Assembly (NCBI GenBank): GCA_048881705.1
Contig: JBHLSH010000090.1
Location: forward strand, 1-13,912
DNA from: Candidatus Heimdallarchaeota archaeon
GTDB lineage: Archaea > Asgardarchaeota > Heimdallarchaeia > Hodarchaeales > Hodarchaeaceae
Length of the DNA: 13,912 bases
Direction: 5' to 3'
Translations under genes and position numbers: made by a program
Part shown: positions 1-13,912 of the stretch, one piece after another
Position numbering within the stretch: the first letter of the stretch is position 1
Layout: the number at the start of each line of letters is the position of its first letter
The notes under the pieces: model-generated
The model's input: the letters and a program-made list of their open reading frames with translations, nothing else
What the model was told of the DNA's origin: nothing
The model's database searches: none

Positions 1-342
1 GGGTAGTACAAAGATACCTCGACAAGCAGCATGGCCACAATACGATAGCTGGGGAACCACATTTATCTTGCGAAAGATAGCGGGATCATAGACGAGTAGT
101 ATCCATGCTTAGGGCATCTCATAATACCAGTTTTTTGTTGAATACCTGAATGTAGCCAAATATCTAAAGATATAACGAAATCACAAGGTGAGAGGGTGTA
201 AAATAATTTAAATAGGATGTTGATCATCTTTAAAATAATGATGCACCTGTATTGGGATCGAAAACAGGTTCCAACCGTATAACGGGTAAAAATCAATAAA
301 AAGGTGTCAGAAGTAGGAGATCTGAACCGTTTTTAAAAGGAC

Positions 343-350
343 TTTATAAA
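343..350 (+). promoter_or_regulatory. Candidate TATA box (TTTATAAA) for the 513-aa gene
   Basis: TTTATAAA at 343-350, preceded by purine-rich AAAAGGA (BRE-like), ~70 nt upstream of the GTG at 419. GGAGAG at 406-411 is an SD-like site 7 nt before the start. Confidence 0.45.
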
Positions 351-418
351 GCGACAAAAAGCTATTTATTATTCTGGCTCCGATTCAATGCTGTTAACAG
401 GAACCGGAGAGATGTGAG

Positions 419-1960
419 GTGGTGAAAACTCATGAATCCCTTAAGAAGTCCATTTCCACAGTTTTACAGCAGCTTTCTCTTCGTACCAGTAGTTATCCTC
501 ATTCGGAACAAAAAAGGCTGGATGAATTACTGGATTTAATCCGTCATTACGAAGAAGCGGACTTTAATAGAAAGAAATTAGTACTAAGGTTTGCTAAATA
601 TAATAAGGGGACTCTTCAGGATGAAGAGTACCTTGGGCTTCCATTCTTATGGTTTAGTGGTATCTATTCTCAAAATGCAAAAGTCTTGTTAGAACATTCC
701 AAGTTTCATGCAATATCATTCTATGAATTCTTGGCAAAGCATTTACGGGGAGCTTTTCGACTGGTTAATAACTTGGAACCACTGTCCTCGATATTATGGG
801 AAGATTTACAATACGAAGCCAATAAATTACTCCAATATCTCACCAAAAGAGATCTAGAGACTTTAAGGGTGGAATTTCGACTTTTGAAAGAGAAAGGAGT
901 AGTTGCCCTAAGCGCACGACGGCAAAGGGAATTCATTATGGATTATATTGAATTTTTCAGAGATGAAACACCATCCGCAGAACTAAAGCGGCTATTCTCA
1001 ATTCTAAACGGAAAATGGGTGCTACACTTTTTTCCTCCCGCATTTGACCTTAATCGTGTCTTCTTTGAACTTCAGATCGTCGATGCTATTTCCTTAAATG
1101 AAATAATAGATTTTACAAATTTCAAAAACACTACATTAGCAATGAGCGATATCTATAACACTCGTGAAGATCCAAAACGATATCTTGGATTTCTAATTGT
1201 TCCAACTAATTGTGTCACTGTGTTAAAAGCAAATCTAGTTAAATTCCGGGATAAGGGGAAAATAAAACTAGAAAAATTTTCTTCGGTATTAGATTATAGG
1301 AAAAATATATCCTTAAGACAATATCATTCCGAAAAAGGGTGGCTCAATACCAGTTCAACATATCTTCGCAAGCTAAAACGAATTATTTTATCAAGCGGAT
1401 CGGCTGAGCTAGAATATTCCACAAATAGTACTGGAGATGATTACTATATCCCAAATGCAATGGACACGAATTGGAATTATCGAGATCATCCCCTTCCTCA
1501 TCGGATAATTGAGCTAGTTTGTAGAATGACGAAAGAGTTCACATTTAGTGATTTACCCATTGGTTCAGATGATTTAAGGAATCCTAGTTCTCTAGCCATC
1601 GATGAATTAGGACTCTTAAAGCAATTATATTACAACAGAGTGGTCTATCCAGTTTTTATCCCCTGGCAAATTGTATATGAATTTTCACTAAACAATTTCT
1701 GCGTATATATCCCGAAAATCTCATTTTCTAACTTGAAAAAAATAGTAGAGATCATTCCATACAGTGAGGTGATATTCACCAAAGAGTTCAATTTCCTATT
1801 TGGGAGACTAACCCCTCGATTGGTTAATTGGATTCGATCAGATTTAGGCTGGGATGTCCATATGGTCAGTAGAACACACAAAAAGCCCATGGAATTTAAT
1901 TCTGACTGGTTTGACAAAAGATCATTGACCTGGGTGGTTCCAGAGGTATTATCCCAATAA
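419..1960 (+). CDS. Uncharacterised 513-aa soluble protein, possibly a tandem Lrp/AsnC-like (wHTH + ferredoxin-like) regulator
   Basis: Long ORF with GTG start and SD-like GGAGAG. Its C-terminus is conserved at protein level in the paralog remnant at 2135-2391, which shows it is coding. The fold guess rests only on weak resemblance (LTKRDLETL to the Lrp N-terminal helix; alternating beta/alpha segments), so the product is low confidence. Confidence 0.85.
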   Translation: MVKTHESLKKSISTVLQQLSLRTSSYPHSEQKRLDELLDLIRHYEEADFNRKKLVLRFAKYNKGTLQDEEYLGLPFLWFSGIYSQNAKVLLEHSKFHAISFYEFLAKHLRGAFRLVNNLEPLSSILWEDLQYEANKLLQYLTKRDLETLRVEFRLLKEKGVVALSARRQREFIMDYIEFFRDETPSAELKRLFSILNGKWVLHFFPPAFDLNRVFFELQIVDAISLNEIIDFTNFKNTTLAMSDIYNTREDPKRYLGFLIVPTNCVTVLKANLVKFRDKGKIKLEKFSSVLDYRKNISLRQYHSEKGWLNTSSTYLRKLKRIILSSGSAELEYSTNSTGDDYYIPNAMDTNWNYRDHPLPHRIIELVCRMTKEFTFSDLPIGSDDLRNPSSLAIDELGLLKQLYYNRVVYPVFIPWQIVYEFSLNNFCVYIPKISFSNLKKIVEIIPYSEVIFTKEFNFLFGRLTPRLVNWIRSDLGWDVHMVSRTHKKPMEFNSDWFDKRSLTWVVPEVLSQ

Positions 1961-1973
1961 GAAAAAAATAAAG
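1961..1973 (-). terminator. T-rich terminator-like tract downstream of micro-ORF 1
   Basis: The minus strand reads CTTTATTTTTTTC about 25 nt after the micro-ORF stop. Oligo-T tracts are established archaeal termination signals. Confidence 0.45.
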
Positions 1974-1996
1974 GGGGTAGTTATTCACAATTCCTT

Positions 1997-2032
1997 TCAC
2001 ATTCCGCCATTTCCGCCGTCTTGAGGGGGCAT
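1997..2032 (-). CDS. Micro-ORF 1, 11-aa peptide MPPQDGGNGGM
   Basis: ATG CCC CCT CAA GAC GGC GGA AAT GGC GGA ATG TGA. AGGTGA lies 6 nt upstream of the ATG. A near-identical second copy is at 2428-2463. Confidence 0.65.
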   Translation of the reverse strand: MPPQDGGNGGM

Positions 2033-2037
2033 TGATT

Positions 2038-2074
2038 CTCACCTAATATCGTGTGGATAGGATAGTTATTAAAA
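2038..2074 (-). promoter_or_regulatory. SD (AGGTGAG, 2044-2038) and candidate TATA (TTTTAATAA, 2074-2066) for micro-ORF 1
   Basis: The SD matches the archaeal GGAGGTGA-type consensus. The TATA position would give a short leader just covering the SD. Confidence 0.5.
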
Positions 2075-2111
2075 CTCCCAACTTTCGTTGTTTCGACGGT
2101 CAATTTGCGTC

Positions 2112-2391
2112 ATTTTCAACCATCTCTCCCCTATGTATGGTTACCCAAAAATTACTTTTATAACTTGAAAGAACTTATCAAAATGATTCCGTATAGTGAG
2201 GTGTTTTTCACCGAAGCATTTATCTGTTTACTTGGGAGATTAACTCCACAACTAGTTACTTGGATGCGTTCAGACTTAGATTGGGATGTCCATATGATCG
2301 GTAGAGGGCGTAAAAACCTATCGAACTTAATCCAGACTGGTTTAACAAGAGATTGTTGTCCTGGGTAGTTCCAGAGGTCTTGATCTCGTAA
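2112..2391 (+). pseudogene. 5'-truncated, frameshifted paralog of the C-terminus of the 513-aa gene
   Basis: 2135-2391 aligns to 1703-1960 with about 51-52 of 85 residues identical by manual count (IPYSEV, GRLTP, WDVHM, DWF.KR, WVVPEVL). There is a 1-nt deletion at ~2317-2319, the stop codon is equivalent (TAA 2389-2391), and the 5' ~420 codons are absent. Confidence 0.9.
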
Positions 2392-2408
2392 GAAAAAATA
2401 AAAGAAAG
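2392..2408 (-). terminator. T-rich terminator-like tract downstream of micro-ORF 2
   Basis: The minus strand reads CTTTCTTTTATTTTTTC, at the position equivalent to the tract in copy 1. Confidence 0.45.
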
Positions 2409-2427
2409 GGATTCTTGACGGTTCTTC

Positions 2428-2466
2428 TCAGTGTCCGCCATTTCCGCCGTCTTGTGGGGGCATCAT
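2428..2466 (-). CDS. Micro-ORF 2, peptide (M)MPPQDGGNGGH (11-12 aa)
   Basis: ATG ATG CCC CCA CAA GAC GGC GGA AAT GGC GGA CAC TGA. GAGGTGAGGT lies at 2480-2471, and the TGA is at the same codon position as in copy 1. Confidence 0.65.
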   Translation of the reverse strand: MMPPQDGGNGGH

Positions 2467-2470
2467 TTTA

Positions 2471-2480
2471 ACCTCACCTC
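2471..2480 (-). promoter_or_regulatory. Strong SD (GAGGTGAGGT) for micro-ORF 2
   Basis: GAGGTGA is 7 nt from the ATG at 2466, and GAGGT is 7 nt from the ATG at 2463. AT-rich TATA-like tracts lie upstream (2497-2506, 2518-2526). Confidence 0.55.
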
Positions 2481-3022
2481 TTCGATACATTTGGAGTATA
2501 ATAATATCCCAAAATATTGATTAAAACTAAATGCGGACATGCTTGAGCGTCTTTTTAATACTGGGCCATTCCAGAGGTTCTGTCATAAATGCAAACAAAG
2601 GCTATGGAATATCACTGACACTTCTTTTTCGTGCCCCATTTAACCGTCCTATCGAAGTACCATCTTATTCGCGCCCCTTTCCCATGTTCACGGTTGTTGA
2701 AAACCTAAAAACCAGATTGGTAAACAACCTTATTCATATAGGGCTGTACGGATCAGATCCATTACTTGCCATTTAATGAATGAACTCTCCTCAGTTGATT
2801 CGCCAAAATTATCACGAAAATCCTGAATCTTTCCTTATGTGCTCCAGAAATGGGGACAAAAATCTTGCGTTTGTGCATCCGTTAAACATGGGATAGTTTG
2901 TCAAAAAATGTAAGTAAGAAGGAGGTCTGGATAATACCAAGATCATCCATACGAGTTACTGTGATTAGATCTCCAAACAACAGACTTGAATCATCGAAAA
3001 AAATCAAAACCCATTACCTGAA

Positions 3023-3379
3023 ATGACTGTTGTTCTGAGAAACATGGCGTCCATAATTGCAAAGTGGCAGAAATGTGGAAAATCTACGTGTCGCTGCAAA
3101 TCGGGGGCACTGCATGGGCCCTACTTTTGGTTAATCACGTACGTGTCCAGAAAGGCAGAACATCCGCAAAAGGGGCGGTACAGCTGGAAATACCTGGGCA
3201 AACATCCTGAAACCGCGTGGATCCGACTTAAAGAAATCGATGAGCGTTTCGATCAACAATATGATCTACAGGATCTAAAGAACAAAATAACGGATATGAT
3301 ACAGATCCGAAAAATTCAAAGAGATATTTCGGTTACTGAACCGGTTTTGGTTGTGGATGATCCGCGTTTGGACCATTGA
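3023..3379 (+). CDS. DUF6788-like small basic protein with Cys/His (probable Zn-binding) motif
   Basis: KCGKSTCRCKSGALHGPYFWL matches the CG-x3-C-x-C...HGPY signature as I recall it for DUF6788. An HMM check is needed. Confidence 0.75.
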   Translation: MTVVLRNMASIIAKWQKCGKSTCRCKSGALHGPYFWLITYVSRKAEHPQKGRYSWKYLGKHPETAWIRLKEIDERFDQQYDLQDLKNKITDMIQIRKIQRDISVTEPVLVVDDPRLDH

Positions 3380-3482
3380 ACATTAGGGCTTATTTTGGCC
3401 GCTATACGATGCGTACATGCCAGAATGGCGCGAATTTTCTGGGGGACCCCGACGAAATAATACCATGGTGTGTTAATGATTC

Positions 3483-3505
3483 TTATATGTACAGTGGAAA
3501 TAGAG
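3483..3505 (+). promoter_or_regulatory. TATA-like box (TTATAT) abutting an ORB-like site (TACAGTGGAAATAGAG) upstream of cdc6
   Basis: CAGTGGAAA matches the core of the Pyrococcus-type ORB (TTCCAGTGGAAA). It lies 60-75 nt upstream of the cdc6 ATG, and SD-like GAGG is at 3555-3558. Confidence 0.5.
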
Positions 3506-3565
3506 CCATTGCGAATGGAACCCGTGGATCGGGTAGCCTTCAACGGTCGGTTATGAGGAATTCAA

Positions 3566-4822
3566 ATGGCACAATTAGACCGCACGTCAGGGGATAGAAA
3601 TCGTGAAGAAGAGGAGGTCACTTTAGACGATATTTTTGAAGGATATTTGAAGCAACCAAAGCTGTTCACCAACCGCGATGCGCTTGAGAGTTCGTTTGTT
3701 CCAGAAAACTTACCCCACCGGACTGAACAAATCAAGCAGCTCGGATATATCCTAGCATCAGTGCTTCGTGGGGCCAAACCGAGCAATATCTTGTGTTTTG
3801 GGAAAACGGGAACAGGAAAAACGGCTGTCTCTAAATATGTCTTGAATACCTTGGGGAAAAAGGCACCACAGCATGGCCTGAAAATTGAAGTAGCATATAT
3901 GAACTGTAATTCCGTCGATACCAATTATCGGGTTTTCGCAGATTTATGCAGCTCCTTGGGGATTGAGGTACCGTTTACCGGGCTTGCCACAGATGAAGTA
4001 TTTACACGGTTCAAACGGGGATTAGATCAGCGGAATTCATTGTTTATTGTCGTTCTTGACGAAATCGATTCATTAGTGAAAAAATCAGGGAATGAAACCC
4101 TTTACAATCTGACTCGTATTAATACTGATCTCACCAGAGCTAAAGTGAGTCTAATTGGGATCTCGAATGACCTTAAGTTTAAAGAATACCTAGATCCTAG
4201 GGTTCTTTCCTCGTTGTCGGAGGAGGAGATTGTTTTCAAGCCTTATGAGGCACCTGAAATCATGGATATTCTGATTGACCGTGCAAGGCTGGCGTTCAAA
4301 GAAAATGTCCTATTGGAAGGGGTCCTCAATATGATTGCCGCGATAGCGGCCCAGGAGCACGGTGACGCACGTCGGGCTATTGATTTGTTACGAGTATCTG
4401 CTGAAACTGCGGAACGGGAAGGCAGTGAACAAATACTTCAAAGACATGTCAAGATCGCCCAGGGGGCCATAGAGAGGAACACGATCACGGAAGTGTGTGC
4501 ATCTCTGCCGCTTCAATCTAAGATAGTTATCTCTTCGATTTATCTCTTAGAAAGCACACAGGAAACATCTCAAACGGTATCCACTGGCGATGCTTATGAC
4601 GAATATGTCCGTTTGTGTCGTGAAATGGGAATGGATTCCCTAACACAACGTCGTGTAGGGGATCTCATTAATGAGCTTGATGCCCTGGGCATAATTAGTG
4701 CCCGAGTGGTTTCACGTGGACGTCATGGACGGACAAAAGAGATACGTATTTCAGTCCCCCGCCCGTTGGTGGCAAAAATTTTACGAGAAGACAAAATCAT
4801 CGGAAATAAGTTAACGAACTAG
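3566..4822 (+). CDS. cdc6: Orc1/Cdc6 replication initiator
   Basis: Walker A GKTGTGKT, Walker B VVLDEID, sensor ISND, GDARRAIDLL, and a C-terminal wHTH (RRVGDLINELDALGII...GRHGRTKEI). Confidence 0.97.
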   Translation: MAQLDRTSGDRNREEEEVTLDDIFEGYLKQPKLFTNRDALESSFVPENLPHRTEQIKQLGYILASVLRGAKPSNILCFGKTGTGKTAVSKYVLNTLGKKAPQHGLKIEVAYMNCNSVDTNYRVFADLCSSLGIEVPFTGLATDEVFTRFKRGLDQRNSLFIVVLDEIDSLVKKSGNETLYNLTRINTDLTRAKVSLIGISNDLKFKEYLDPRVLSSLSEEEIVFKPYEAPEIMDILIDRARLAFKENVLLEGVLNMIAAIAAQEHGDARRAIDLLRVSAETAEREGSEQILQRHVKIAQGAIERNTITEVCASLPLQSKIVISSIYLLESTQETSQTVSTGDAYDEYVRLCREMGMDSLTQRRVGDLINELDALGIISARVVSRGRHGRTKEIRISVPRPLVAKILREDKIIGNKLTN

Positions 4823-4876
4823 CTTCTGATTTCAATAATTGGATTAAATCCATTTGGGAGAGAGCAGGTCTCACCA

Positions 4877-6448
4877 TTAGGAGGGAATTATCTGCATTTT
4901 TCTGAGATCAATCGTGGCAATTTGACCAGTATGGATATCCAAAATATGGACAACCCCCACCGATGTTTTCTGCGAGATTTTCAAATGATCTGGGCCTTTG
5001 CCTTGAAATGTACCACAAGCGATTATTTTCACTCCTTTGTACTCGGCCACAGATGCTTGATGGCTGTGCCCGACGACAAGTACTTCTGGAACTCGATCAA
5101 TGACAAGATAGTCCCGTTTTGCAGGTACAAGCGGAATGGTGACTCCATACTCTGGAGCTAAATGCCGATATTCCAATAATTGTTGAATGCTCGAAATAGG
5201 ATTAATCGGGTCGAGCTGTTCGATCCCTTGCCCGTGATAGACTAGAAGGTTTAAACCATCGATTGTTACCCGAAGTGGGTTGCCATGAGGTAATACGTTC
5301 GGAAGGGAAAAAATCGAATTTCCTATTTCTCGATCAATAGCAGGCTGGGGTAAGGCTATTTGGGTGGCATCATGCTCCCCTGGGATTACTATTATCTGAA
5401 TGTAAGAAGGAATTTTAGAGAATAGACCTGATAAACCATCATATTGAGCTTGAAGTGAAGATACACTTAAATTTGCTTGCTGGTCAGGAAATTGTCCAAC
5501 GCCATCGCAAAGATCTCCAGCAACAATAACAACTTTGATATCTTGGGCTAGGGAAGCCAGATTAGGAGGTAGGTCATCTAATTGAACCAATTTTAGTAGA
5601 TTTGCAAAAGCCCTTGTGGCGAAGGATTTTGCGCCAAAATGGATATCTGCAAGAAAAAGTATTTTTCCAGAGCGGGGATTTGGTTGAAATCGGATAGGAG
5701 TGAGACTAGGCCGAATAACATCTTTTCCCCAAAAGGCAGTAATAGCTCCCTCCTCGTATTTCTTAGGTAGATCTCCTTCAACCCCGATCACAGTATCACG
5801 GAGAATTTCGTGATACCCTGAAAAGGATGTACTTTCTTGAACCATGACACATCGAGTAAGCATTTCATCATTAGGGTCTTCTAACTGGATGACAAACTTC
5901 CCGGTATGTAGGACCCCGGTATCTTGCACCATTCCAATCAATATTCCGCTTTTGTCAAGAGGAACTTCCTCTATCGTCAGGTTTCGGCCAAGAACCAGTC
6001 CTTGATCTGGTAGTTGATCCCTTATGATTCTTGAGAGTCGCTGAAACCTGTCAAGAAACAGATCCCGAAACGTGTCAACTTCAACAGGATCAGAAGGGGA
6101 AGTCGGGATATCAAGGTCAATAACAATTTCGGGCAGAGATGGGGGTTGTTTTGGGGTAGAGATGTGAGATTTTTGTTGTGTAGAAATTTGGTCTGAGTTA
6201 CGGATTGATATAGAATCGTTCGTAGAAGGCATTTCAAGACCTTTCGATATCTCAGGACGGTGTTGAGTTGACATCAGGGCCTCCTGAATGACAGGGACAG
6301 TTACAACGGGGACTTCTTGAGGTAATTGGGAAACAAGAGTATTCATTTGGCTTTTGGAGAGCGAAATGTTTCTTAGATAATCCAGAACCTCACCTGTGAC
6401 ATTAAACCCATGTTTCAAGAACAGAGCGATTAGTTCAGCTCGATCCAT
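4877..6448 (-). CDS. polB: DNA polymerase D small (proofreading exonuclease) subunit DP1
   Basis: N-terminal helical domain, OB-fold region, and calcineurin-like phosphoesterase motifs ADIHFG, GDLCDG, PGEHD, YHG, RHLAPEYG and GHSH. It is adjacent to cdc6. Confidence 0.92.
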   Translation of the reverse strand: MDRAELIALFLKHGFNVTGEVLDYLRNISLSKSQMNTLVSQLPQEVPVVTVPVIQEALMSTQHRPEISKGLEMPSTNDSISIRNSDQISTQQKSHISTPKQPPSLPEIVIDLDIPTSPSDPVEVDTFRDLFLDRFQRLSRIIRDQLPDQGLVLGRNLTIEEVPLDKSGILIGMVQDTGVLHTGKFVIQLEDPNDEMLTRCVMVQESTSFSGYHEILRDTVIGVEGDLPKKYEEGAITAFWGKDVIRPSLTPIRFQPNPRSGKILFLADIHFGAKSFATRAFANLLKLVQLDDLPPNLASLAQDIKVVIVAGDLCDGVGQFPDQQANLSVSSLQAQYDGLSGLFSKIPSYIQIIVIPGEHDATQIALPQPAIDREIGNSIFSLPNVLPHGNPLRVTIDGLNLLVYHGQGIEQLDPINPISSIQQLLEYRHLAPEYGVTIPLVPAKRDYLVIDRVPEVLVVGHSHQASVAEYKGVKIIACGTFQGKGPDHLKISQKTSVGVVHILDIHTGQIATIDLRKMQIIPS

Positions 6449-6619
6449 ACCGCTGACAAACCTAACTTTCTGATGGCAAACCTATCCCACGTACCTGACC
6501 CGTAGTTCCTTTTATTATTTTTCTCCATGATAGGCACGTCCCTCACTTAGAAGGCAGTCAGAGCATGGTCTCGCTCCTAAATCCTTAAAACGGCCGTAAT
6601 TTACATGGGATAAGAAGGA

Positions 6620-8785
6620 TTATGGAGCAATGGCACCTGGTGGAATACTATCCCACTTAATTCTCCAGATATAAACCCAGTCATGAGAGGTTTTATACGC
6701 CAGTTCATAATAGTCGGCATATTCCGCGTAATCTGGGGAAAACCCTTTTTCCGCGGGGGCATTATCTGAAATGGGGGCATAGCTGGTGATTCGATCATAG
6801 GTGGCCTGTTCGACTTCAGCGGTGTACAATGACCAAAAGACCGAGTCATAGAATTTGTTGACGTATCCTTCGATGAACTGCCCTCTGTCATCATAGTCTA
6901 GGTACTCATCTTCCACAATTTGGACAATATTACCATTTTTTTCACCAATCTTTACAAACCAAGGAACTTTTCCAAGATCTGAATCCAAACCTTGGGCTCC
7001 GAACCCATCCGAGACCAACAGAACGATATATGAGATATCATAAATCTTGGCGATCTTGAGACTTTCACGAGGGTTCAAAACTAACATACAGCCGATATTG
7101 GCAATCTTGGTACTATTTATGGTCGCATTATCCACTAGGATCGTCGTATTCGAGGTTCCACTGATCCAATACCCGTAATCCCACCAGGACGCCACAGTAC
7201 CATCATTAATGGTGACGTGATAATCGAGCCACCCGATGGCTTCTTGCCAATCATTTCCTATGATCAATCTATTCTCTTCTACAACAAGAGTGAGAATCGA
7301 AGGTGCATGAGTACTTTGGACCGCGGCATCGCTAGCCAGCATCACCGAGGAGAGTAGAAAGAGGCCGATAAAGGCAAAGGCGATGGCCGTATGCTCATTG
7401 GTCAGAGGTTGGCTGATTCGGGTCTTTCGCCGAGAGAGGGCAAACCGTTCCTGAAAAGTGAGTACAAAGGGGAGTAGGGTTTGATCTACTCCTTTTGCTA
7501 TGAGCAGAGCCGCCGCTGGGGCCAAAATAAGAGCCAGTCGTACCATGCTTCCCGCAAAAAAGATCGCCGTACCCCCAAAAAGTAACAACAAGATATTCTT
7601 CTCAGTTGGCTGTTCCCATAGATAATACAGACTAAGAGGTAAGAAAACAATAAGAATGCCGATATTATTGAAAAACGCCAGCCAAGTGACAAGTTGATGC
7701 TCCGAAACGGATTTGAGAATCGGGGTTTCATCTCGAAAGAACGGAAGTATGACCGTGATAAACTTGGAAGAAAAATTGGTCAGAAAACCAGTCAACATGA
7801 GAATGATGATTCCGATCCCAGTAAGGATAATCAAATATGGAAAGAGAGGGCGGATCCGATCATAAACTAAAGAAGTATCATAGTATTCGCCAATATAGTT
7901 CCATAACGCCACTAAGATAAGGAAGCCCACAACCCCGAGCGGCACCAAGCCATTTGTGGATAAGAGTGATGCGGGTCCATTACGGGGGATAAGGGTCATG
8001 ATGAATGATCCAATGAGGATGGAGCCAGAATATGATATCAGCAGGCGATCCGAGTATTTCTTGGAAAGGACAAGCAGAAAGGCATAAAGAGCCAATAAAT
8101 TGAAAACATATGTAGAGGCCCCCCAAGAACCTGATATTATTCCCAGTGAAATACCCGATAAAACCGTGGTAAATATGGATCCTGTTCGTAATGCTCGGGC
8201 GAAAAAATACAAACAAACAACTAGTAAGAGGATTCCTAAGCCTTCATTGTCAAAAAAACCAACAACAGTGCGTTGAAGATGGCCTGCGGACACAGCCAAC
8301 AACAATGCAGACAGAATCCCGACTTTTTTGTTGGCTAGCTCCTTTCCTAAAAAGTAAATTGCGATGACGGTTAAAGACCCGGTAATGGCTGGTTGAAAAT
8401 AGGCAGCAACCTGTAACGGAACATCAATTCCTAAAATGAGCGCTAATTCGTGAAGGAGGACAGCCGAGAGGGGCGTGCCAATATACTGAGATTTTCCCCA
8501 GAAACGGCCTTCAGGATACCAAGTCTGGTAATCCACCCAGGAAAAAAAGGCGAACAATCCGTTTTCAGAGATGTACTCGGCCGCCCGTAACTGAGAGTAG
8601 GGATCATTGGCAGAAAGGATCACCTCATACCGAAAAAAAGGGAAAATTCGCACTATGAAAGCTATCACAAAGATGAGAACCAGAGAGGAGTAGAGAAGGA
8701 TATGCTGCCTGGTAAGGGTTGTTGTTGCAAAATTATACCGAGTTCTGAGGTCATCAGTAATTCTAGATGTAAGACTAGGCGACAA
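6620..8785 (-). CDS. aglB: Oligosaccharyltransferase AglB/STT3
   Basis: Multiple transmembrane segments; motifs NDPY, FFDNE, SVSEHQ, WWDYG, DNAT and DLGK. TTG start with GGTGA 6 nt upstream. Confidence 0.96.
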   Translation of the reverse strand: MSPSLTSRITDDLRTRYNFATTTLTRQHILLYSSLVLIFVIAFIVRIFPFFRYEVILSANDPYSQLRAAEYISENGLFAFFSWVDYQTWYPEGRFWGKSQYIGTPLSAVLLHELALILGIDVPLQVAAYFQPAITGSLTVIAIYFLGKELANKKVGILSALLLAVSAGHLQRTVVGFFDNEGLGILLLVVCLYFFARALRTGSIFTTVLSGISLGIISGSWGASTYVFNLLALYAFLLVLSKKYSDRLLISYSGSILIGSFIMTLIPRNGPASLLSTNGLVPLGVVGFLILVALWNYIGEYYDTSLVYDRIRPLFPYLIILTGIGIIILMLTGFLTNFSSKFITVILPFFRDETPILKSVSEHQLVTWLAFFNNIGILIVFLPLSLYYLWEQPTEKNILLLLFGGTAIFFAGSMVRLALILAPAAALLIAKGVDQTLLPFVLTFQERFALSRRKTRISQPLTNEHTAIAFAFIGLFLLSSVMLASDAAVQSTHAPSILTLVVEENRLIIGNDWQEAIGWLDYHVTINDGTVASWWDYGYWISGTSNTTILVDNATINSTKIANIGCMLVLNPRESLKIAKIYDISYIVLLVSDGFGAQGLDSDLGKVPWFVKIGEKNGNIVQIVEDEYLDYDDRGQFIEGYVNKFYDSVFWSLYTAEVEQATYDRITSYAPISDNAPAEKGFSPDYAEYADYYELAYKTSHDWVYIWRIKWDSIPPGAIAP

Positions 8786-8993
8786 AAGGCTTCACCGAAA
8801 TAGATCTAAACGGGTACCCTCGGATTTTATGGAATAGTGGATTTCCTAACAAGGATAACGAAACGCTTGATGAATGGTCTACTTCTCCATTTTGTTTTTT
8901 GTTTTTTGCTGTTCGATGTTCTTTTAGATGGTTCTTTTTACACGATGTCAGGGTAGATTGAAAATCATTTACTAAATAAAAGCAGTTTTAAAG

Positions 8994-9353
8994 GTGCTAT
9001 TCGTGACGAAACCATCGATTGCCCCAGATATTGATCTAGAGTTGTTCGAACTAAAATTTCCTGGCAAAATTATAGGTAAAGCAGTCATAGATGCCAATGC
9101 CCAGATGATTGGGGTAATTCGTAATGTTAGAGTACAAATCGGATTAACATCAACCGCAACGAGCTTAACGATCAAGGGTTTGAATACTGAATTTGAAATA
9201 AAATCAGAAGATATCAAAGCAATCGGGAATGTCGTCAATTTAAATGTCACTATCAAGCACTCCGAACCTATAGAGGTACAAGATGTTATCCGCTTACGTA
9301 ACGAAATCCAAGAGGAGCTCCTCCACTTCTATCAGGTAATCCAGCCCCGATGA
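8994..9353 (+). CDS. PRC-barrel domain protein (CdpB-like) with C-terminal helical extension; true start probably GTG 9003
   Basis: IGKAVIDANAQMIGVIRNVRV ... SEDIKAIGNVVNL is a typical archaeal PRC-barrel pattern. AAGGTG (8991-8996) lies 6 nt before the in-frame GTG at 9003. Confidence 0.8.
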   Translation: MLFVTKPSIAPDIDLELFELKFPGKIIGKAVIDANAQMIGVIRNVRVQIGLTSTATSLTIKGLNTEFEIKSEDIKAIGNVVNLNVTIKHSEPIEVQDVIRLRNEIQEELLHFYQVIQPR

Positions 9354-9359
9354 CAAGGT

Positions 9360-9731
9360 TTATTGATCAAAATTGGCGATCTTTAATGTAATGTCTACTA
9401 TGGTGTCAATTGTCCGAAGAAGACGCTTGATTTCGTCCAAAGATTCCGTAGCAGCTAGCTGATGACTTAGGGCAAGGAGTTTTCCTACGAGAATGTCCTG
9501 CAACTGTTCAATTGTTTCACCAAGAGAATATCTATGCTCAATTTGCTTTGCTTCTATGTCTGATCTGGCAAAAACTGCTTCTCTATTGCATTTAGGGCAA
9601 AAAATCTTGTTTTCTTTCTTAAAGAGGGGAACATGACAGTCTGGACAGGAATCTGATAACATTGTTGCTCCTGTTAGAAGTAAAGAACTCATACGTGCAA
9701 TGGGATCTGATTCTGAGGGTTCTTTTGCCAT
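9360..9731 (-). CDS. UPF0148 / SSSCA1 (autoantigen p27)-type Zn-ribbon protein
   Basis: MSSLLLTGATMLSDSCPDCHVPLF...IFCPKC followed by a helical C-terminus. Confidence 0.88.
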   Translation of the reverse strand: MAKEPSESDPIARMSSLLLTGATMLSDSCPDCHVPLFKKENKIFCPKCNREAVFARSDIEAKQIEHRYSLGETIEQLQDILVGKLLALSHQLAATESLDEIKRLLRTIDTIVDITLKIANFDQ

Positions 9732-9804
9732 GATGGTAACCCGTTTTTACGTGATTCTTGCCAAATTCAGGTAGTAATATAATATTAGCCTACAATCCAT
9801 ACCA

Positions 9805-12402
9805 TTAGAATTTGATGATAGAGGAGATATGGTCGTTTGCTCCATAAATAATGGATTCGCGGTTGCTGAGAATAATTTTCTGGACATTGTGCATGGCCTT
9901 AAAATCATCGGCGAAGGCTGCGAGCGTAGGAGGAATACTTAGACTAGTGAGAGGGGCCTTAAAAGATAGCTTTTTGAGTTTTTTACTTCTCCAGATTAAA
10001 GAGTTAAGTTCCATGATTTTCGGAGTGCGAAAATCTTCTTCTGCAGAATTAGTCTCCGATTCTGGCATTAATTTTCTATGGATACTTTGAGAAGGTTCGT
10101 AAAGTTTTTGATAAATAGCTTCGGCTATAAACGGGGTGATGGGAGCGAGAAGTTTGAGAATGGTTTTGAAAACGTAGTGTATGGTGAAGTGGGCACTTTC
10201 AGTCGCCTCTTGGCCCGAAACGTCATCGCTATACGCACGAGTTTTCGCCAATTCTATATAATGGGCCGCAAAAATCGTTCGTACCCAATTGTAGATGTTT
10301 ATCGCTGGAACGGAAAAATCGAGTTGTTGATAACCTTTGTGACATCTATTGATAAGCCCATTTAAACTTGATAAAATCCATTCGTCTGTGGGGTATAATA
10401 TGGAGGGTTGGGTGCTATTGGGAAACACGGAGACAAATCGGGCGATATTCCAAAGTTTGGTGATAAATTTGGTATGACCGTTCAACTTGTCCAAAGAAAA
10501 TCGAATGTCGGTTCCATGGCTACCCTGTAAACATGATGAAAGCCTGACACTATCGGCGCCGCAGAAGAGATTCGGGAGTTTATTCTTATCCTTAAAGCGG
10601 TTGGAGATTTCCTTCTCAGCAATGTTTGTCCAGCTGTCTATTTCGGGTTTTAACGTTTCAGGAGTATTTAAAGGCAAATTAGGCGGTTGAATGAATACCA
10701 ATGGGTCTACACTGTTACCTAAACTTTTAGACATTTTCCCACCAAATGGATCAAGAACAAGGCCAGATATCCATACTTGCTTGAACGCTGATTTCTTAAA
10801 AAGAAGATAGGCGCGCAGAATAGTATAGTAAAGCCAAGTCCGTACGATTTCTTTCCCTTGGGGCCGTATCGAGCAGGGGAAATTCTGGGTGAAAAAAGAC
10901 TGATCAGGATCTTCAAAAAAGATCTCGCCATAATTGCATACTGCGAGTTCTGAGATTGAAGAATCGTACCAAGTGTCAAATGTTCTTTCCTCTCCTATGG
11001 CATCTACAAGCGTATTTCCACATTGAGAACACCGAGAAAGGCTAGCTGGGGGATTCTCTTTCCAAGCTTCATAATAACGATCGAGTACTTTCGGTACGTT
11101 TGGAAACTGACATTTCTGGCAATACCAAATTGGAATTGAAGTACCGTAAAACCGTCTTCTGCTTATCGCCCAGTCCATAGATAGATCTTTCATCCAGTTC
11201 TCTAGGATATTCTGACTAGATTGAGGATAGAAATGCATAAGCTCAGATATCTTTCTGAGCTCAGGAAGAAATTCTACCTGCTGGAGATAATATTCCTCTT
11301 GACCGATAATTTCTATCACTGTTTTGGATCTCCAACAGATAGGTACACGTCGAGAAATGGCTGACGATTTGATCAAGAAATCTGCTCTTTTCAGATCAGA
11401 TAGGATAGCTTCTTGTGCTTCTTTAACCGTTTTTCCTTGATACTTCCCTGCTACCGCATTTAATTTCCCATCAGTAGTAATAACGGTTTTGGGATGATTA
11501 ATGCCGAAATCTCGAAGGATTTTTACGTCTGATTTATCACCATACGCACAAATCATCATGATTCCAGTACCTAATCCAGGATCAGCTTCTGGATGAGAGA
11601 ATATGGGAACTGATTTGCTATATAGAGGTGTTAATGCCTGTTTTCCCTCCAGATGAACGTAGCGGAAATCATCGGGATGATAAATTATTAGTTCACAGGT
11701 TGCAATTAGTTCTGGTCGTGTCGTGGCAATTTTGATTGTTTCATCCGAATCAGCCAGATTAAACTTTATTTCATGAATTAATGAGTCATCGTTTCGGTAT
11801 TCGATTTCCGCATCAGCTATTGTCGTCCCACAGTCTATGCACCAATTATTTGGCCTGGTAGATCTATAAACTAATCCATCATGCCAAGCTTGAATAAAAG
11901 TACGTTGTGTTAGCACACGGTATTGTGGAGAGTCTGTCTGGTAATAAATGTTTGGGGTTCCGTAAAATGTGTTACAAGACAACCCCATCCACTTCATTAC
12001 TGCCAATGTGTTTTCTTCGGCCTCATCTAGCTCAATTTTACAGATTTTAAGGAATTCCACACGATCTATATCATGCATCGATTGACCTAGTTTACGTTCA
12101 ACTTTGACCTCCACAGGAAGGCCATTTCGATCAGTGCAGGCTGGAAATAACACTTCACACCCCATCATTCTGTAATAACGTGCGATCATGTCTATTTGTG
12201 CGTAGTGTATGGCAAAACCCAGATGGGCCCGGCCAGAAACATATGGAGGGGGAGTATCTATGATATAAACGGGTTTATTTGTCTTAGGATTGAACTGAAA
12301 GGTTGCATCCTTTTCCCAATAAGCAATAATGTCCCGCTCGATGTTCGGGTTCCAATTTTTCATATCTAGCTTTGGTTTACTTCTCATTGATTTTATCTCC
12401 AT
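9805..12402 (-). CDS. valS: Valyl-tRNA synthetase, archaeal type
   Basis: IDTPPPYVSG, HIGH variant HLGF, DRNGLPVE, editing domain ATTRPEL/GTG, W.ISRRR..G, DTW.DSS and KMSKSLGN. The C-terminus is short and lacks the bacterial coiled coil. Confidence 0.96.
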   Translation of the reverse strand: MEIKSMRSKPKLDMKNWNPNIERDIIAYWEKDATFQFNPKTNKPVYIIDTPPPYVSGRAHLGFAIHYAQIDMIARYYRMMGCEVLFPACTDRNGLPVEVKVERKLGQSMHDIDRVEFLKICKIELDEAEENTLAVMKWMGLSCNTFYGTPNIYYQTDSPQYRVLTQRTFIQAWHDGLVYRSTRPNNWCIDCGTTIADAEIEYRNDDSLIHEIKFNLADSDETIKIATTRPELIATCELIIYHPDDFRYVHLEGKQALTPLYSKSVPIFSHPEADPGLGTGIMMICAYGDKSDVKILRDFGINHPKTVITTDGKLNAVAGKYQGKTVKEAQEAILSDLKRADFLIKSSAISRRVPICWRSKTVIEIIGQEEYYLQQVEFLPELRKISELMHFYPQSSQNILENWMKDLSMDWAISRRRFYGTSIPIWYCQKCQFPNVPKVLDRYYEAWKENPPASLSRCSQCGNTLVDAIGEERTFDTWYDSSISELAVCNYGEIFFEDPDQSFFTQNFPCSIRPQGKEIVRTWLYYTILRAYLLFKKSAFKQVWISGLVLDPFGGKMSKSLGNSVDPLVFIQPPNLPLNTPETLKPEIDSWTNIAEKEISNRFKDKNKLPNLFCGADSVRLSSCLQGSHGTDIRFSLDKLNGHTKFITKLWNIARFVSVFPNSTQPSILYPTDEWILSSLNGLINRCHKGYQQLDFSVPAINIYNWVRTIFAAHYIELAKTRAYSDDVSGQEATESAHFTIHYVFKTILKLLAPITPFIAEAIYQKLYEPSQSIHRKLMPESETNSAEEDFRTPKIMELNSLIWRSKKLKKLSFKAPLTSLSIPPTLAAFADDFKAMHNVQKIILSNRESIIYGANDHISSIIKF

Positions 12403-12452
12403 AAGAACAGAGACCGTGACATAAAGTCCCCTTCAGAAGTCCTAAGGAAGAG

Positions 12453-12466
12453 AATTCAGCTGAATT
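12453..12466. promoter_or_regulatory. Perfect 14-bp palindrome AATTCAGCTGAATT in the valS / kinase divergent intergenic region
   Basis: The sequence equals its own reverse complement and lies 51 nt upstream of the valS ATG. Its function is inferred only. Confidence 0.4.
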
Positions 12467-12556
12467 AGGGGATAAAAAAATGTAGATAAGATTTTCCCCC
12501 GCCAAAAATCCATTCCATCTCTGTTGAGAGCTGTAAGAAAAGAGCGTTACGGGAAA

Positions 12557-12635
12557 TGGTGTTGTCTCATACGAGGCCAGGATTGAGGGATCTAACAAAG
12601 TGATCCCGGCTGGGAGACACCACTAATTCACCATT
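12557..12635. other. Potential multi-stem RNA hairpin in the valS / kinase intergenic region
   Basis: Nested pairs TGTCTC/GAGACA (12563-68/12614-19), CCAG/CTGG (12577-80/12610-13) and GGGATC/GATCCC (12587-92/12602-07). AATGGTG can also pair with CACCATT (12629-35). Confidence 0.4.
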
Positions 12636-12717
12636 CGTTTCTGAAAAACACAGCTTTAAAAAGCCGTCTATTTTTGATCGTCGTTGCTTGATGACAAGAT
12701 AAAAAGCTTCATATGGA

Positions 12718-13839
12718 TTGCGTGAGAATAAAGGTATGAGTCGAGATATTTTAGCAGAAGAACAACTTAAATTTGAAATAATACGCGTTCTTTCTCGTTA
12801 CTTCCTCCGTCAAATTGAAGATTTAGTTAGAACTAAAACAGGGGCTTTCTTTCCTGTAGAAAAAATCGAAAATATAGAACTGGGCCGAAGGCTTGGGAAA
12901 CGCAGGGAATTGCAGTTAGCGACACTCACGGTTCGAGATGCAATTTCTGATCGCCAATTCAGTTTCGAACTGGCCTTTAAATTCCATGCAAATCAAGATA
13001 CTGCCATTAAAGAGGGAAATGGTGCGTTATGGCTAGGAGATGTCCTAAAGAACAATTCTAAGGTGCACACACCTCAATTACTGTATTTATCTAGAGAAAG
13101 TTCTCTATTAATTTATGAGGGGGTTCAAGCAAAGGAATTCTATGACAGTGAGCTTGAAGAGCCCGAAAAACTGCTTTTGGCTGGCATGGCACTACCTTAT
13201 GTTCATGGTATTTTCAAACAGAGGGTGCAAGTGGATCGCTATCTCCATCTAATTTCAGGGGTAACCGCTGGTTTACGAATGTCTCCAGATGAGAAAACAG
13301 AGTTTAATTCTCTTTTTAAACCGTTTCTCCGCCATGTAGGCATCAGTGAAGCGGGAGGAAATTGTTTTGGCGATTTCCACCCTGGAAATATCATGTTTCA
13401 ACATGGCGGGGATATAAATGCATCTACCAGCAATACGGGGAATGTTCTGGTAGATCACACGGATATTTTTTTAATCGACCCAGCTTATTTAGATAACGAA
13501 GGAAACGTTGATAGAACTGAGGATATCGGAACTTTTTTTTCAAAAATTGCCTCGAATGAATGGTTATTGAACCAATCGTTTGACACCAGTATACGCCAAA
13601 TTGAGCAATTCGTTAAAGGTTACAATTACATCACCCAAATGAACGGTATGACGCTACAGGATTATTATGTAGACGGAAAACCTTCTTTTGATTTTCAAAT
13701 TGGGTTGGGGATTCTGCTTGATACCTTATATAAAATGAAAACACCTGGTGGAGATTTTGGAGCCAAAACGAGTACTAATGTTGAGGCGGCCAAACAGATT
13801 TTGACTCGGCAACCGTTTGAAGCAGTTGAACCTGTCTAG
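12718..13839 (+). CDS. APH/choline-kinase-like phosphotransferase (protein-kinase fold), substrate unknown
   Basis: LAFKF (catalytic Lys region), Brenner-type motif FGDFHPGNIMF, metal-binding FLIDP and downstream EDIG. The start is uncertain (TTG 12718 or ATG 12737). Confidence 0.85.
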   Translation: MRENKGMSRDILAEEQLKFEIIRVLSRYFLRQIEDLVRTKTGAFFPVEKIENIELGRRLGKRRELQLATLTVRDAISDRQFSFELAFKFHANQDTAIKEGNGALWLGDVLKNNSKVHTPQLLYLSRESSLLIYEGVQAKEFYDSELEEPEKLLLAGMALPYVHGIFKQRVQVDRYLHLISGVTAGLRMSPDEKTEFNSLFKPFLRHVGISEAGGNCFGDFHPGNIMFQHGGDINASTSNTGNVLVDHTDIFLIDPAYLDNEGNVDRTEDIGTFFSKIASNEWLLNQSFDTSIRQIEQFVKGYNYITQMNGMTLQDYYVDGKPSFDFQIGLGILLDTLYKMKTPGGDFGAKTSTNVEAAKQILTRQPFEAVEPV

Positions 13840-13912
13840 CCATATTTTTGTTATTTTCGACAGACTCTTAACAAAATATTAGAAGGACTGAGAATTTTCG
13901 CACTACCTGCCT

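Follow-up and report, generated by a model that had tools for sequence, protein, structure and literature searches.

Can an open reading frame (ORF) of eleven codons be a gene in its own right, and can it belong to the much larger gene that it faces? This question is raised by a 13,912-nucleotide (nt) stretch of DNA from a Candidatus Heimdallarchaeota archaeon (contig JBHLSH010000090.1 of assembly GCA_048881705.1, positions 1 to 13,912; hereafter the window), in which an intact gene for a 513-aa protein (419-1960, plus strand) is followed by a convergent micro-ORF, MPPQDGGNGGM plus stop (2032-1997, minus strand), and further on by a second one, MPPQDGGNGGH plus stop (2463-2428, minus strand). 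The preliminary description of this DNA had seen here a duplicated pair of a large protein and a micro-peptide. Both 11-codon ORFs and the 36-nt gaps that separate them from the ends of the large genes are real, but the second copy of the large gene proved to be a frameshifted pseudogene fragment of about 95 codons. A two-gene module, which is very probably a conserved functional unit, is present in the window as one intact copy and two that are decaying. Full-text searching of the literature found no account of such a pairing of a large gene with a micro-gene, and the pairing of Lrp/AsnC-like genes with mini-genes rich in Pro and Gly is undescribed. Genes of 10-13 codons are invisible to annotation, and more than 80 of them were recovered here by comparative evidence alone, every one accompanied by a promoter-like signal, a Shine-Dalgarno site and a terminator signal.

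Pairing of the large gene with a micro-gene

The large gene is a member of a multi-copy, genus-restricted family (family A). We gathered 67 full-length family A genes from 22 genomes of one Thorarchaeota-type genus as a paralog set and counted a micro-gene as associated when a convergent ORF of 9-16 codons with an M(x)PP start lay no more than 350 nt downstream of the large gene. The scan of homologues, which the preliminary description had set beforehand as its refuting test, found such a micro-ORF beside most of them (52/67), whereas the opposite strand of the same regions, taken as a control, gave a single hit in the 74 matches scanned. Among random 350-nt windows of this genome, 3.8% contained an ORF of this definition and 0.37% contained one with a Shine-Dalgarno sequence (SD). 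Three of the 15 paralogs without a micro-ORF had less than 270 nt of downstream sequence to scan. All 21 other genomes of the genus had the large-protein family, often in clusters and at as many as 10 matches each, and it was absent from all 62 genomes that represented other genera of the class. When 400 genomes of the phylum were searched with a profile, only three weak partial matches were added, from another taxonomic family, and an exhaustive profile search of 1.84 billion representatives returned only 194 clusters at 50% identity. The nearest named homologue of the 513-aa protein comes from a Candidatus Thorarchaeota metagenome-assembled genome (74% identity). The neighbours of family A genes are diverse housekeeping genes, and no modifying or export genes are conserved nearby.

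Within the archaeal source assembly (3.96 Mb, 41% G+C), further paralogs of the large gene lie on contigs C14, C88 and C115, and those on C14 and C115 have convergent micro-ORFs (MPPDEGPGSSK and MPPEESPGFP, respectively) just past their ends. The C14 paralog (C14:4773-6305, minus strand) is interrupted by one in-frame TGA, which may mark a pseudogene, a sequencing error or recoding, yet its micro-gene is retained. A genome-wide scan of the assembly for SD-bearing micro-ORFs with at least 40% Pro plus Gly gave nine entries at seven loci, and the loci linked to the family are C14, C90 (two micro-ORFs, three entries) and C115; the remaining four (C18, C24, C66 and C68) have no family link. Looser scans added C88:13764, which has an SD and a terminator and lies near a family member, and C86:7959, which is away from any family gene. 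Two other genomes, sampled over 120 kb, had exactly one micro-gene per family gene (8/8) and one stray match. The micro-ORF was also asked for beside unrelated genes, and both in this genome and in these 120 kb it occurs almost exclusively beside family members.

Some micro-genes stand alone. The one at C88:13764-13793 (plus strand, MPPEEPTSQ) and its homologue at L009 (about 3480-3540, plus strand, ...SPPEQPTGQ) both have an SD and an oligo-T terminator. Each is found some 400 nt past a family gene of the same strand, without an intact convergent partner, and they are probably relics of lost paralogs. The ORF at C86:7959-7988 (plus strand, MPPNEPDLP, SD AAGGGGGT) lacks a clear T-run, is more than 2.5 kb away from any family gene, and may be a solo copy or a product of chance.

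Ancestry and coding character of the micro-gene

In a FastTree tree of the 67 family A proteins, whose deep order is uncertain given the long branches, the micro-gene is found on the deepest branches and has been lost in a few clades. Its distribution on the tree takes a minimum of eight changes, compared with 13.8 for shuffled labels. Moreover, the three weak partial matches of the family A profile led to a second family (family B), whose proteins of 575-600 aa occur in 19/19 genomes of another Asgard taxonomic family, usually as two tandem paralogs; hhalign aligned the two families as homologues across 435 columns (probability 95%, E 3e-8). Pro-rich micro-genes, here 10-12 codons long, accompany family B as well. 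Their SD is perfect (GGAGGC), they have a TTTAAA box, and a hairpin with a T-run is often present. The micro-gene of the B1 paralogs, M[WY]PP[RS]RP[DE]P..., lies on the same strand as the large gene about 150 nt past its stop (15/15 loci), those of the B2 paralogs (MSYPRIRPxPGx, MYPPRDPFPC and MYPARPTDPY) are convergent, and in one family B genus the micro-gene is upstream of the large gene (MYPPDRPEPLPG). Some family B units run from promoter to micro-ORF, hairpin and T8, and then to the next paralog. Since both homologous families carry micro-genes, the pairing predates the split between them, and the same-strand micro-genes of family B together with the intact solo micro-genes make an obligatory antisense mechanism unlikely. 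In more distant homologs (taxonomic families f8, f9, f11 and f27), no micro-ORF was found by the criteria used. The view of the preliminary description that gene and micro-ORF together are the unit of duplication and inheritance is thereby upheld far beyond the window, by 67 paralogs in 22 genomes, by the deepest branches and by the second family.

The same-strand micro-gene between tandem family B paralogs is itself duplicated in tandem at several loci (L102/L118, L116, L113 and L120/L122), where each copy has its own SD and the endings sometimes differ (MWPPSRPEPF / MWPPSRPEPDQD).

When 56 family A micro-gene units were aligned in register on their PP codons, they shared a GGGNG-TTAWAWA element about 40 nt before the ATG, which resembles an archaeal B recognition element and TATA box (BRE/TATA). 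Nearly all family micro-ORFs have GAGGT or GGTGA 5-9 nt before the ATG. The ORF itself consists of M, zero to two residues, PP and then seven or eight codons, so laid out that the distance from PP to the end is 9-10 codons in 49/56 units, and a pyrimidine-rich tract with a run of T5-T10 follows 20-100 nt past the stop. In 49/53 loci, a T5+ run is situated between the micro-ORF and the large-gene stop, and the predicted micro-gene transcript has a median length of 99 nt. On the strand of the large gene, 41/53 family A loci have no T5+ run ahead of the micro-gene, so that overlapping transcripts are probable. A scan for promoters and terminators of bacterial type was uninformative, the host being an archaeon.

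The peptides are composed of 36% Pro and 22% Gly (58% together) and are nearly devoid of hydrophobic residues. Half of the units have D/E at position 4, G/P dominates positions 5-8 and K is often last. All third bases are in use in their Pro and Gly codons, and in 26 close pairs codon positions 1 and 2 were 78% identical compared with 63% at position 3. The substitution pattern is of a coding type, in which the exact sequence is weakly constrained; frame and length persist, as do the composition and the M(x)PP start. With regard to RNA structure, the predicted transcripts fold no better than shuffled ones (mean z -0.48), no conserved alternative structure was detected, and the micro-gene had no Rfam match at E up to 1; a weak pairing of 5' GAGG with 3' CCUC recurs in the predicted folds.

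Tandem units of the window and their genomic setting

The first unit of the window consists of the intact large gene and micro-gene 1, whose ORF is recognised from its sequence and from the codon periodicity and length conservation of the family. Its SD, AGGTGAG (2038-2044, minus strand), lies 5 nt before the ATG, and a BRE/TATA-like box (TGGGAGTTTTAATAA, 2064-2082, minus strand) about 35-45 nt before the ATG is its putative promoter by comparison with the 56 register-aligned units. Spacer 1 (1961-1996, minus strand) has a pyrimidine-rich stretch with oligo-T (complement of 1962-1977), which is the likely terminator. In the second unit, the large gene is reduced to a mosaic pseudogene, a 3' fragment of a paralog comprising about its last 95 codons (2105-2391, plus strand) with a 1-nt deletion near 2317. 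It is followed by spacer 2 (2392-2427, minus strand), with an oligo-T run as candidate terminator, and by micro-ORF 2, which is intact and could also start one ATG earlier at 2466 to give (M)MPPQDGGNGGH. The SD of micro-gene 2, identified in the sequence, is GAGGTGAGGT (2471-2480, minus strand), and its BRE/TATA-like box TTTTGGGATATTATTATAC (2496-2514, minus strand) is again a putative promoter. A third, decayed unit (about 2561-2700, plus strand) retains the large-gene tail WAIPEVLS, with its stop at 2585-2587, and a degenerate remnant of the micro-ORF that has lost its start. Because units 2 and 3 are increasingly degraded, the region 1961-3022 can be read as a series of tandem units in successive states of decay.

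Units 1 and 2 form a tandem duplication (period 431-432 nt, identity 72-76%), whereas the 30-nt cores of their micro-ORFs (2003-2032 and 2434-2463) are one synonymous base apart; no third copy of this core exists at up to three mismatches in the whole assembly. The last 25 codons of the pseudogene encode a sequence 100% identical to that of an intact gene on metagenome contig L109, and its gene end and spacer are 93% identical in DNA to the L109 gene end, while the remainder is about 55% identical to all relatives. The recombinant junction (window 2084-2391 compared with L109:31-1137) coincides with the frameshift near 2317. Tandem units of the family appear to exchange segments, and micro-ORFs that are nearly identical between mosaic flanks suggest gene conversion, purifying selection or a combination of them. 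L109 has the same two-micro-gene layout, with its second large gene decayed to about 25 nt, and solo micro-genes remain intact beside decayed large genes in unit 2 of the window, in unit 2 of L109 and at the L010 and L075 fragments.

The preliminary description had attached weight to the exact conservation of the spacing, for both stop-to-stop gaps (1961-1996 and 2392-2427) are 36 nt long. Spacers of close relatives measure 36, 36, 37 and 37 nt, with 18 nt in one relative, and the family-wide range is 3-204 nt (median 67). The equal spacing is inherited, as no indel has entered the spacer since the duplication, and a functional meaning for it is not supported. Nor is the idea that the last residue (M or H) sets specificity, since no intact large protein is left to pair with the second peptide and, across the family, everything that follows PP is variable.

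Three other kinds of element were considered for the repeat and rejected. A diversity-generating retroelement does not fit, as there is no reverse transcriptase in the window, the mismatches are of every kind and intergenic DNA lies inside the repeat. A mobile-element end or insertion sequence is at odds with 20-40% protein identity between copies, with diverse housekeeping neighbours that are partly syntenic across genomes and with the lack of terminal inverted repeats. Origin recognition box repeats by cdc6 were rejected because the 30-nt element occurs only twice in the genome and because paralogs elsewhere, on different contigs and in different genomes, have equivalent micro-ORFs at their side.

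The module is surrounded in the window by genes for Cdc6/Orc1, the small subunit of DNA polymerase D, AglB/STT3 and ValRS. The Cdc6/Orc1 gene (3566-4822) is convergent with that for the polymerase subunit (4877-6448), and the genome has two more, distant Cdc6 paralogs, on C22 and C1. Downstream of the module, a DUF6788 gene with CxxC and a GPYFW motif (3023-3379, plus strand) is the sole copy in the genome, and the gene-poor 560 nt ahead of it (2467-3022) could contain the replication origin. DUF6788 homologues adjoin family members at the orthologous loci (L009 and L109) and in one other subfamily (L064, L076 and L095). We considered DUF6788 as a third component of the module and rejected it on account of this restriction to the orthologous group of the window and one other subfamily and of its single genomic copy. 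On C115 (region 1-120), the most divergent paralog has a tRNA gene within a few hundred nt of its micro-gene, and the intergenic region contains repeated motifs of the TTAGGAGATTA type that are similar to the BRE/TATA box of the micro-genes; such motifs may be a general promoter consensus of the genus.

Possible roles of the peptide and comparison with known systems

What the peptide could do depends on the nature of its neighbour. Pfam has no match for any of the 67 members, and the Pfam scans of them contained no TPR family. An AlphaFold2 model built from the 67-sequence alignment (predicted local distance difference test 93.3, predicted template modelling score 0.90) gives the 513-aa protein a helical bundle at about 1-135, followed by two repeats of a winged helix-turn-helix (wHTH) and a beta-alpha-beta-beta-alpha-beta, RAM-like unit (about 143-513). 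Its best solved match is the siroheme decarboxylase NirDL (4czc_A; VIA-align Z 12.5, root-mean-square deviation 5.1, 269 residues over 143-513), with the next rows far below, and Foldseek found 4ch7 (E 9.5e-5); the match is one of fold, at 10-11% identity. In the ESM Atlas, the structural neighbours are clusters from archaea (Thor-, Bathy- and Heimdallarchaeota) that carry HTH_AsnC-type/HTH_24 domains. NirDL is a fused pair of Lrp/AsnC-like units, and the RAM domains of Lrp/AsnC proteins bind small effectors at domain interfaces. The model thus confidently portrays the large protein as a NirDL-like tandem pseudo-dimer of the Lrp/AsnC fold and makes it a plausible receptor. The Lrp/AsnC link hinted at in the preliminary description holds at the level of fold and fails at that of sequence, where no Pfam domain is recognised.

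The reading that we rank first, tentatively and with somewhat less than even confidence, is that a translated peptide acts with this neighbouring Lrp-like protein, as the tight one-to-one linkage and the co-duplication are what would be expected of cognate partners. The micro-gene, with its own promoter, SD and terminator, would be transcribed into an RNA of about 100 nt and translated, and the short Pro/Gly-rich peptide would work in trans as the dedicated partner of the adjoining protein. Its most likely role would be that of a ligand that sits in the paired RAM-like, effector-binding domains and tunes DNA binding or assembly of the large protein, each paralog having its own peptide variant. 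Action in trans is preferred to cis-antisense action because orientation and position vary in family B and solo micro-genes persist. A resemblance between MPPxD and a conserved internal Y-P-x-x-D-Q motif of the large protein was considered as mimicry and rejected, being weak; the motif looks like a helix cap. In its full form, the proposal is that Asgard archaea have cognate pairs in which unprocessed peptides of 10-13 residues, rich in Pro, bind the paired effector domains of the neighbouring tandem Lrp-like protein and set its activity, with the paralog variants serving as private channels. This is possible but rather doubtful; if true, it would be the first genetically encoded peptide-ligand system of regulation or signalling in archaea, and its genes would be among the smallest free-standing protein-coding genes known.

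Several results weigh against a peptide ligand. None of the 67 members matches the HTH_AsnC-type or RAM models (PF13404/PF13412 and PF01037) at E up to 1. Two well-defined orthologous groups of the large protein have lost the micro-gene. The body of the peptide can vary strongly while promoter and SD are 80-93% identical between units whose large proteins are 21-35% identical, and the close pairs differ by 29 synonymous and 50 non-synonymous codons, so that the peptide body is near-neutral. Conservation of composition, frame and length means that a function at the level of translation fits at least as well as a sequence-specific ligand. Moreover, the first Pro codon of family A micro-ORFs is CCC in 38/56 units (68%), compared with 23% genome-wide and 10% for later Pro codons of the same ORFs, and in family B it is CCC in 25/29 units (86%). 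This preference is a constraint on nucleotides or decoding that neither a coding nor a ligand role explains. The AUG(-NNN)-CCC-CCN context, with its C5 run, may be a decoding or frameshift-prone context or may pair with the G-rich SD.

These results bring in the main rival explanation, in which the micro-gene senses translation: a hard-to-translate Pro/Gly ORF with AUG-CCC-C would report aIF5A activity, the supply of Pro- and Gly-tRNA or decoding fidelity. The behaviour of the ribosome would decide on termination at the oligo-T run or on the stability of the transcript, and the peptide would be functionless in itself. In family A and convergent B2 units, transcription past the terminator would run antisense into the large gene, and where a micro-gene precedes a family B paralog it would run in sense into the next gene, by which both orientations are accommodated. 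A CCC-C beside a start codon is classically prone to +1 frameshifting and sensitive to EF-P, and the motifs of eIF5A-dependent pausing abound in P, G and D. The explanation agrees with the predominance of Pro and Gly, with position 4 being D/E in half of the units, with a fixed length around a poorly conserved sequence, and with the CCC preference shared by both families. The oligo-T terminators of the units, the attenuator-like layout of some family B units and the probable transcript overlap in 41/53 family A loci also favour it. On the other hand, beyond a family A micro-ORF there is only its terminator and then the antisense of the large gene, stop and T-run stand at variable distances, and the lack of any conserved alternative structure tells against attenuation, which to our knowledge is undemonstrated in this form in archaea. 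Orientation and position relative to the large gene vary, and solo micro-genes survive beside decayed partners. The length of the +1 frame after CCC-C differs between the two window micro-ORFs, the only two compared. We consider a sensor of translation unlikely on the whole, albeit a serious contender; if it is one, it would be a new free-standing regulatory unit built on the difficulty of decoding Pro and Gly (aIF5A type).

A small regulatory RNA is less probable still. Here the transcript of about 100 nt would be the active molecule, for instance by pairing of CCCCC/CCUCC with SD regions or with the 3' untranslated region of the convergent large-gene mRNA, and the ORF would be incidental or part of a dual function. 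Promoter and terminator do delimit a discrete transcript, the C5 run after the start exceeds the expectation from codon usage in both families, CCUCC-like pyrimidine tracts ahead of the T-run pair with 5' GAGG in many predicted folds, and in most family A loci the transcript probably overlaps that of the large gene. However, the strong SD stands at the canonical distance, and start, frame and stop are preserved, with 9-10 codons from PP to stop in 49/56 units. Position 3 of the codons is more variable than positions 1 and 2, Rfam gave no match, the folding energy is not significant, and the same-strand units of family B are unable to act as cis-antisense RNAs.

The peptide could instead be a substrate or precursor that the NirDL-like protein, as enzyme or scaffold, modifies or consumes in the manner of a cofactor or of a ribosomally synthesized and post-translationally modified peptide (RiPP). 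The nearest solved fold is indeed that of an enzyme, NirDL, which evolved from the Lrp/AsnC fold (cf. PMC4145669), and a precursor gene beside an enzyme gene is the usual RiPP layout. These peptides are far below the length of known RiPP precursors and have no division into leader and core, and the neighbours of the large gene are housekeeping genes rather than further modifying or export genes. Up to 10 divergent matches per genome would also be unusual for a biosynthetic enzyme, and we hold this explanation to be quite improbable.

Finally, the micro-ORFs might be chance ORFs in a conserved terminator or intergenic element that segmental duplication carries passively, for, judged from the window by itself, a single mismatch over 30 nt inside a 75%-identical duplication is only weakly significant (by estimate, of the order of 0.2-0.3 after scanning) and the mosaic structure points to gene conversion, but the family-wide data already contradict this very improbable explanation, as the micro-ORF is kept between paralogs with 20-35% protein identity and in a second family, with SD, frame, length and composition conserved while nucleotides differ, against a background of 0.37%.

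Whichever role the micro-gene has, an expanded and fast-evolving family of Asgard regulators has a hidden second component, the module belongs to two related Lrp/AsnC-like families in the archaeal lineage closest to eukaryotes, and it offers testable protein-peptide pairs with natural variants.

Among known systems, type I toxin-antitoxin loci of the TxpA/RatA type are similar in that a small convergent unit overlaps the 3' end of a neighbouring transcript, as is probable here from the positions of the terminators. They differ in that the module ORF encodes no hydrophobic toxin, its partner is a regulator-like protein of 513 aa, and the family B units lie on the same strand. Leader-peptide attenuators and ORFs that stall through EF-P/eIF5A (his and trp leaders, mgtL/mgtP, AZIN1 uCC) likewise have a very short ORF of hard-to-translate codons (Pro, Gly and Asp) followed by a terminator. 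In contrast to them, family A micro-genes have no downstream gene on the same strand, have their own promoter, converge on their partner and show no detectable alternative hairpins, though some family B units do precede a paralog.

On the protein side, the feast/famine regulators of the Lrp/AsnC type, NirDL and AhbA/B resemble the large protein in having two wHTH plus RAM-like modules, with the pseudo-dimer arrangement of NirDL. NirDL and AhbAB are catalysts of the alternative heme and d1 heme syntheses and are encoded with ahb/nir genes; the genes next to the large gene are unrelated to these. The module proteins are distinguished by an additional helical N-domain of about 135 residues and by the absence of any Pfam domain, and we know of no Lrp-family gene with a dedicated micro-gene. 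In heterocystous cyanobacteria, the free-standing patS gene encodes a peptide of 13-17 aa that binds and switches off the DNA-binding transcription factor HetR. That patS is neither linked to nor co-duplicated with hetR, that HetR has a different fold and that RGSGR is unrelated to M(x)PP set this pair apart, but it exemplifies that peptides this small can be dedicated regulators.

The systems of the RRNPP and Rgg-SHP types in Firmicutes and phages (Rap-Phr, NprR-NprX, PlcR-PapR, AimR-AimP and Rgg-SHP) were the model of the preliminary description. As a mechanistic analogy this breaks down on the fold of the receptor and on the signals for peptide export and processing: their receptors are of the TPR type and their peptides are matured to 5-10-mers from longer precursors with an export signal or hydrophobic segment, while the module protein is a tandem of wHTH plus RAM-like units without TPR, and the module peptide of 10-13 codons is hydrophilic, has no signal or hydrophobic segment and leaves no room for a pro-peptide. 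The host is moreover an archaeon, and there is no sequence homology. The likeness lies in the genetic arrangement. In both, a gene of regulator type adjoins a tiny peptide gene (here at 52/67 paralogs), and the cassettes multiply with a peptide variant for each copy; some shp genes are even convergent with rgg. If the peptide is a ligand, it would represent a new class of effector for the most widespread regulator fold of archaea, and the module would be a first archaeal counterpart of the bacterial peptide-receptor cassettes.

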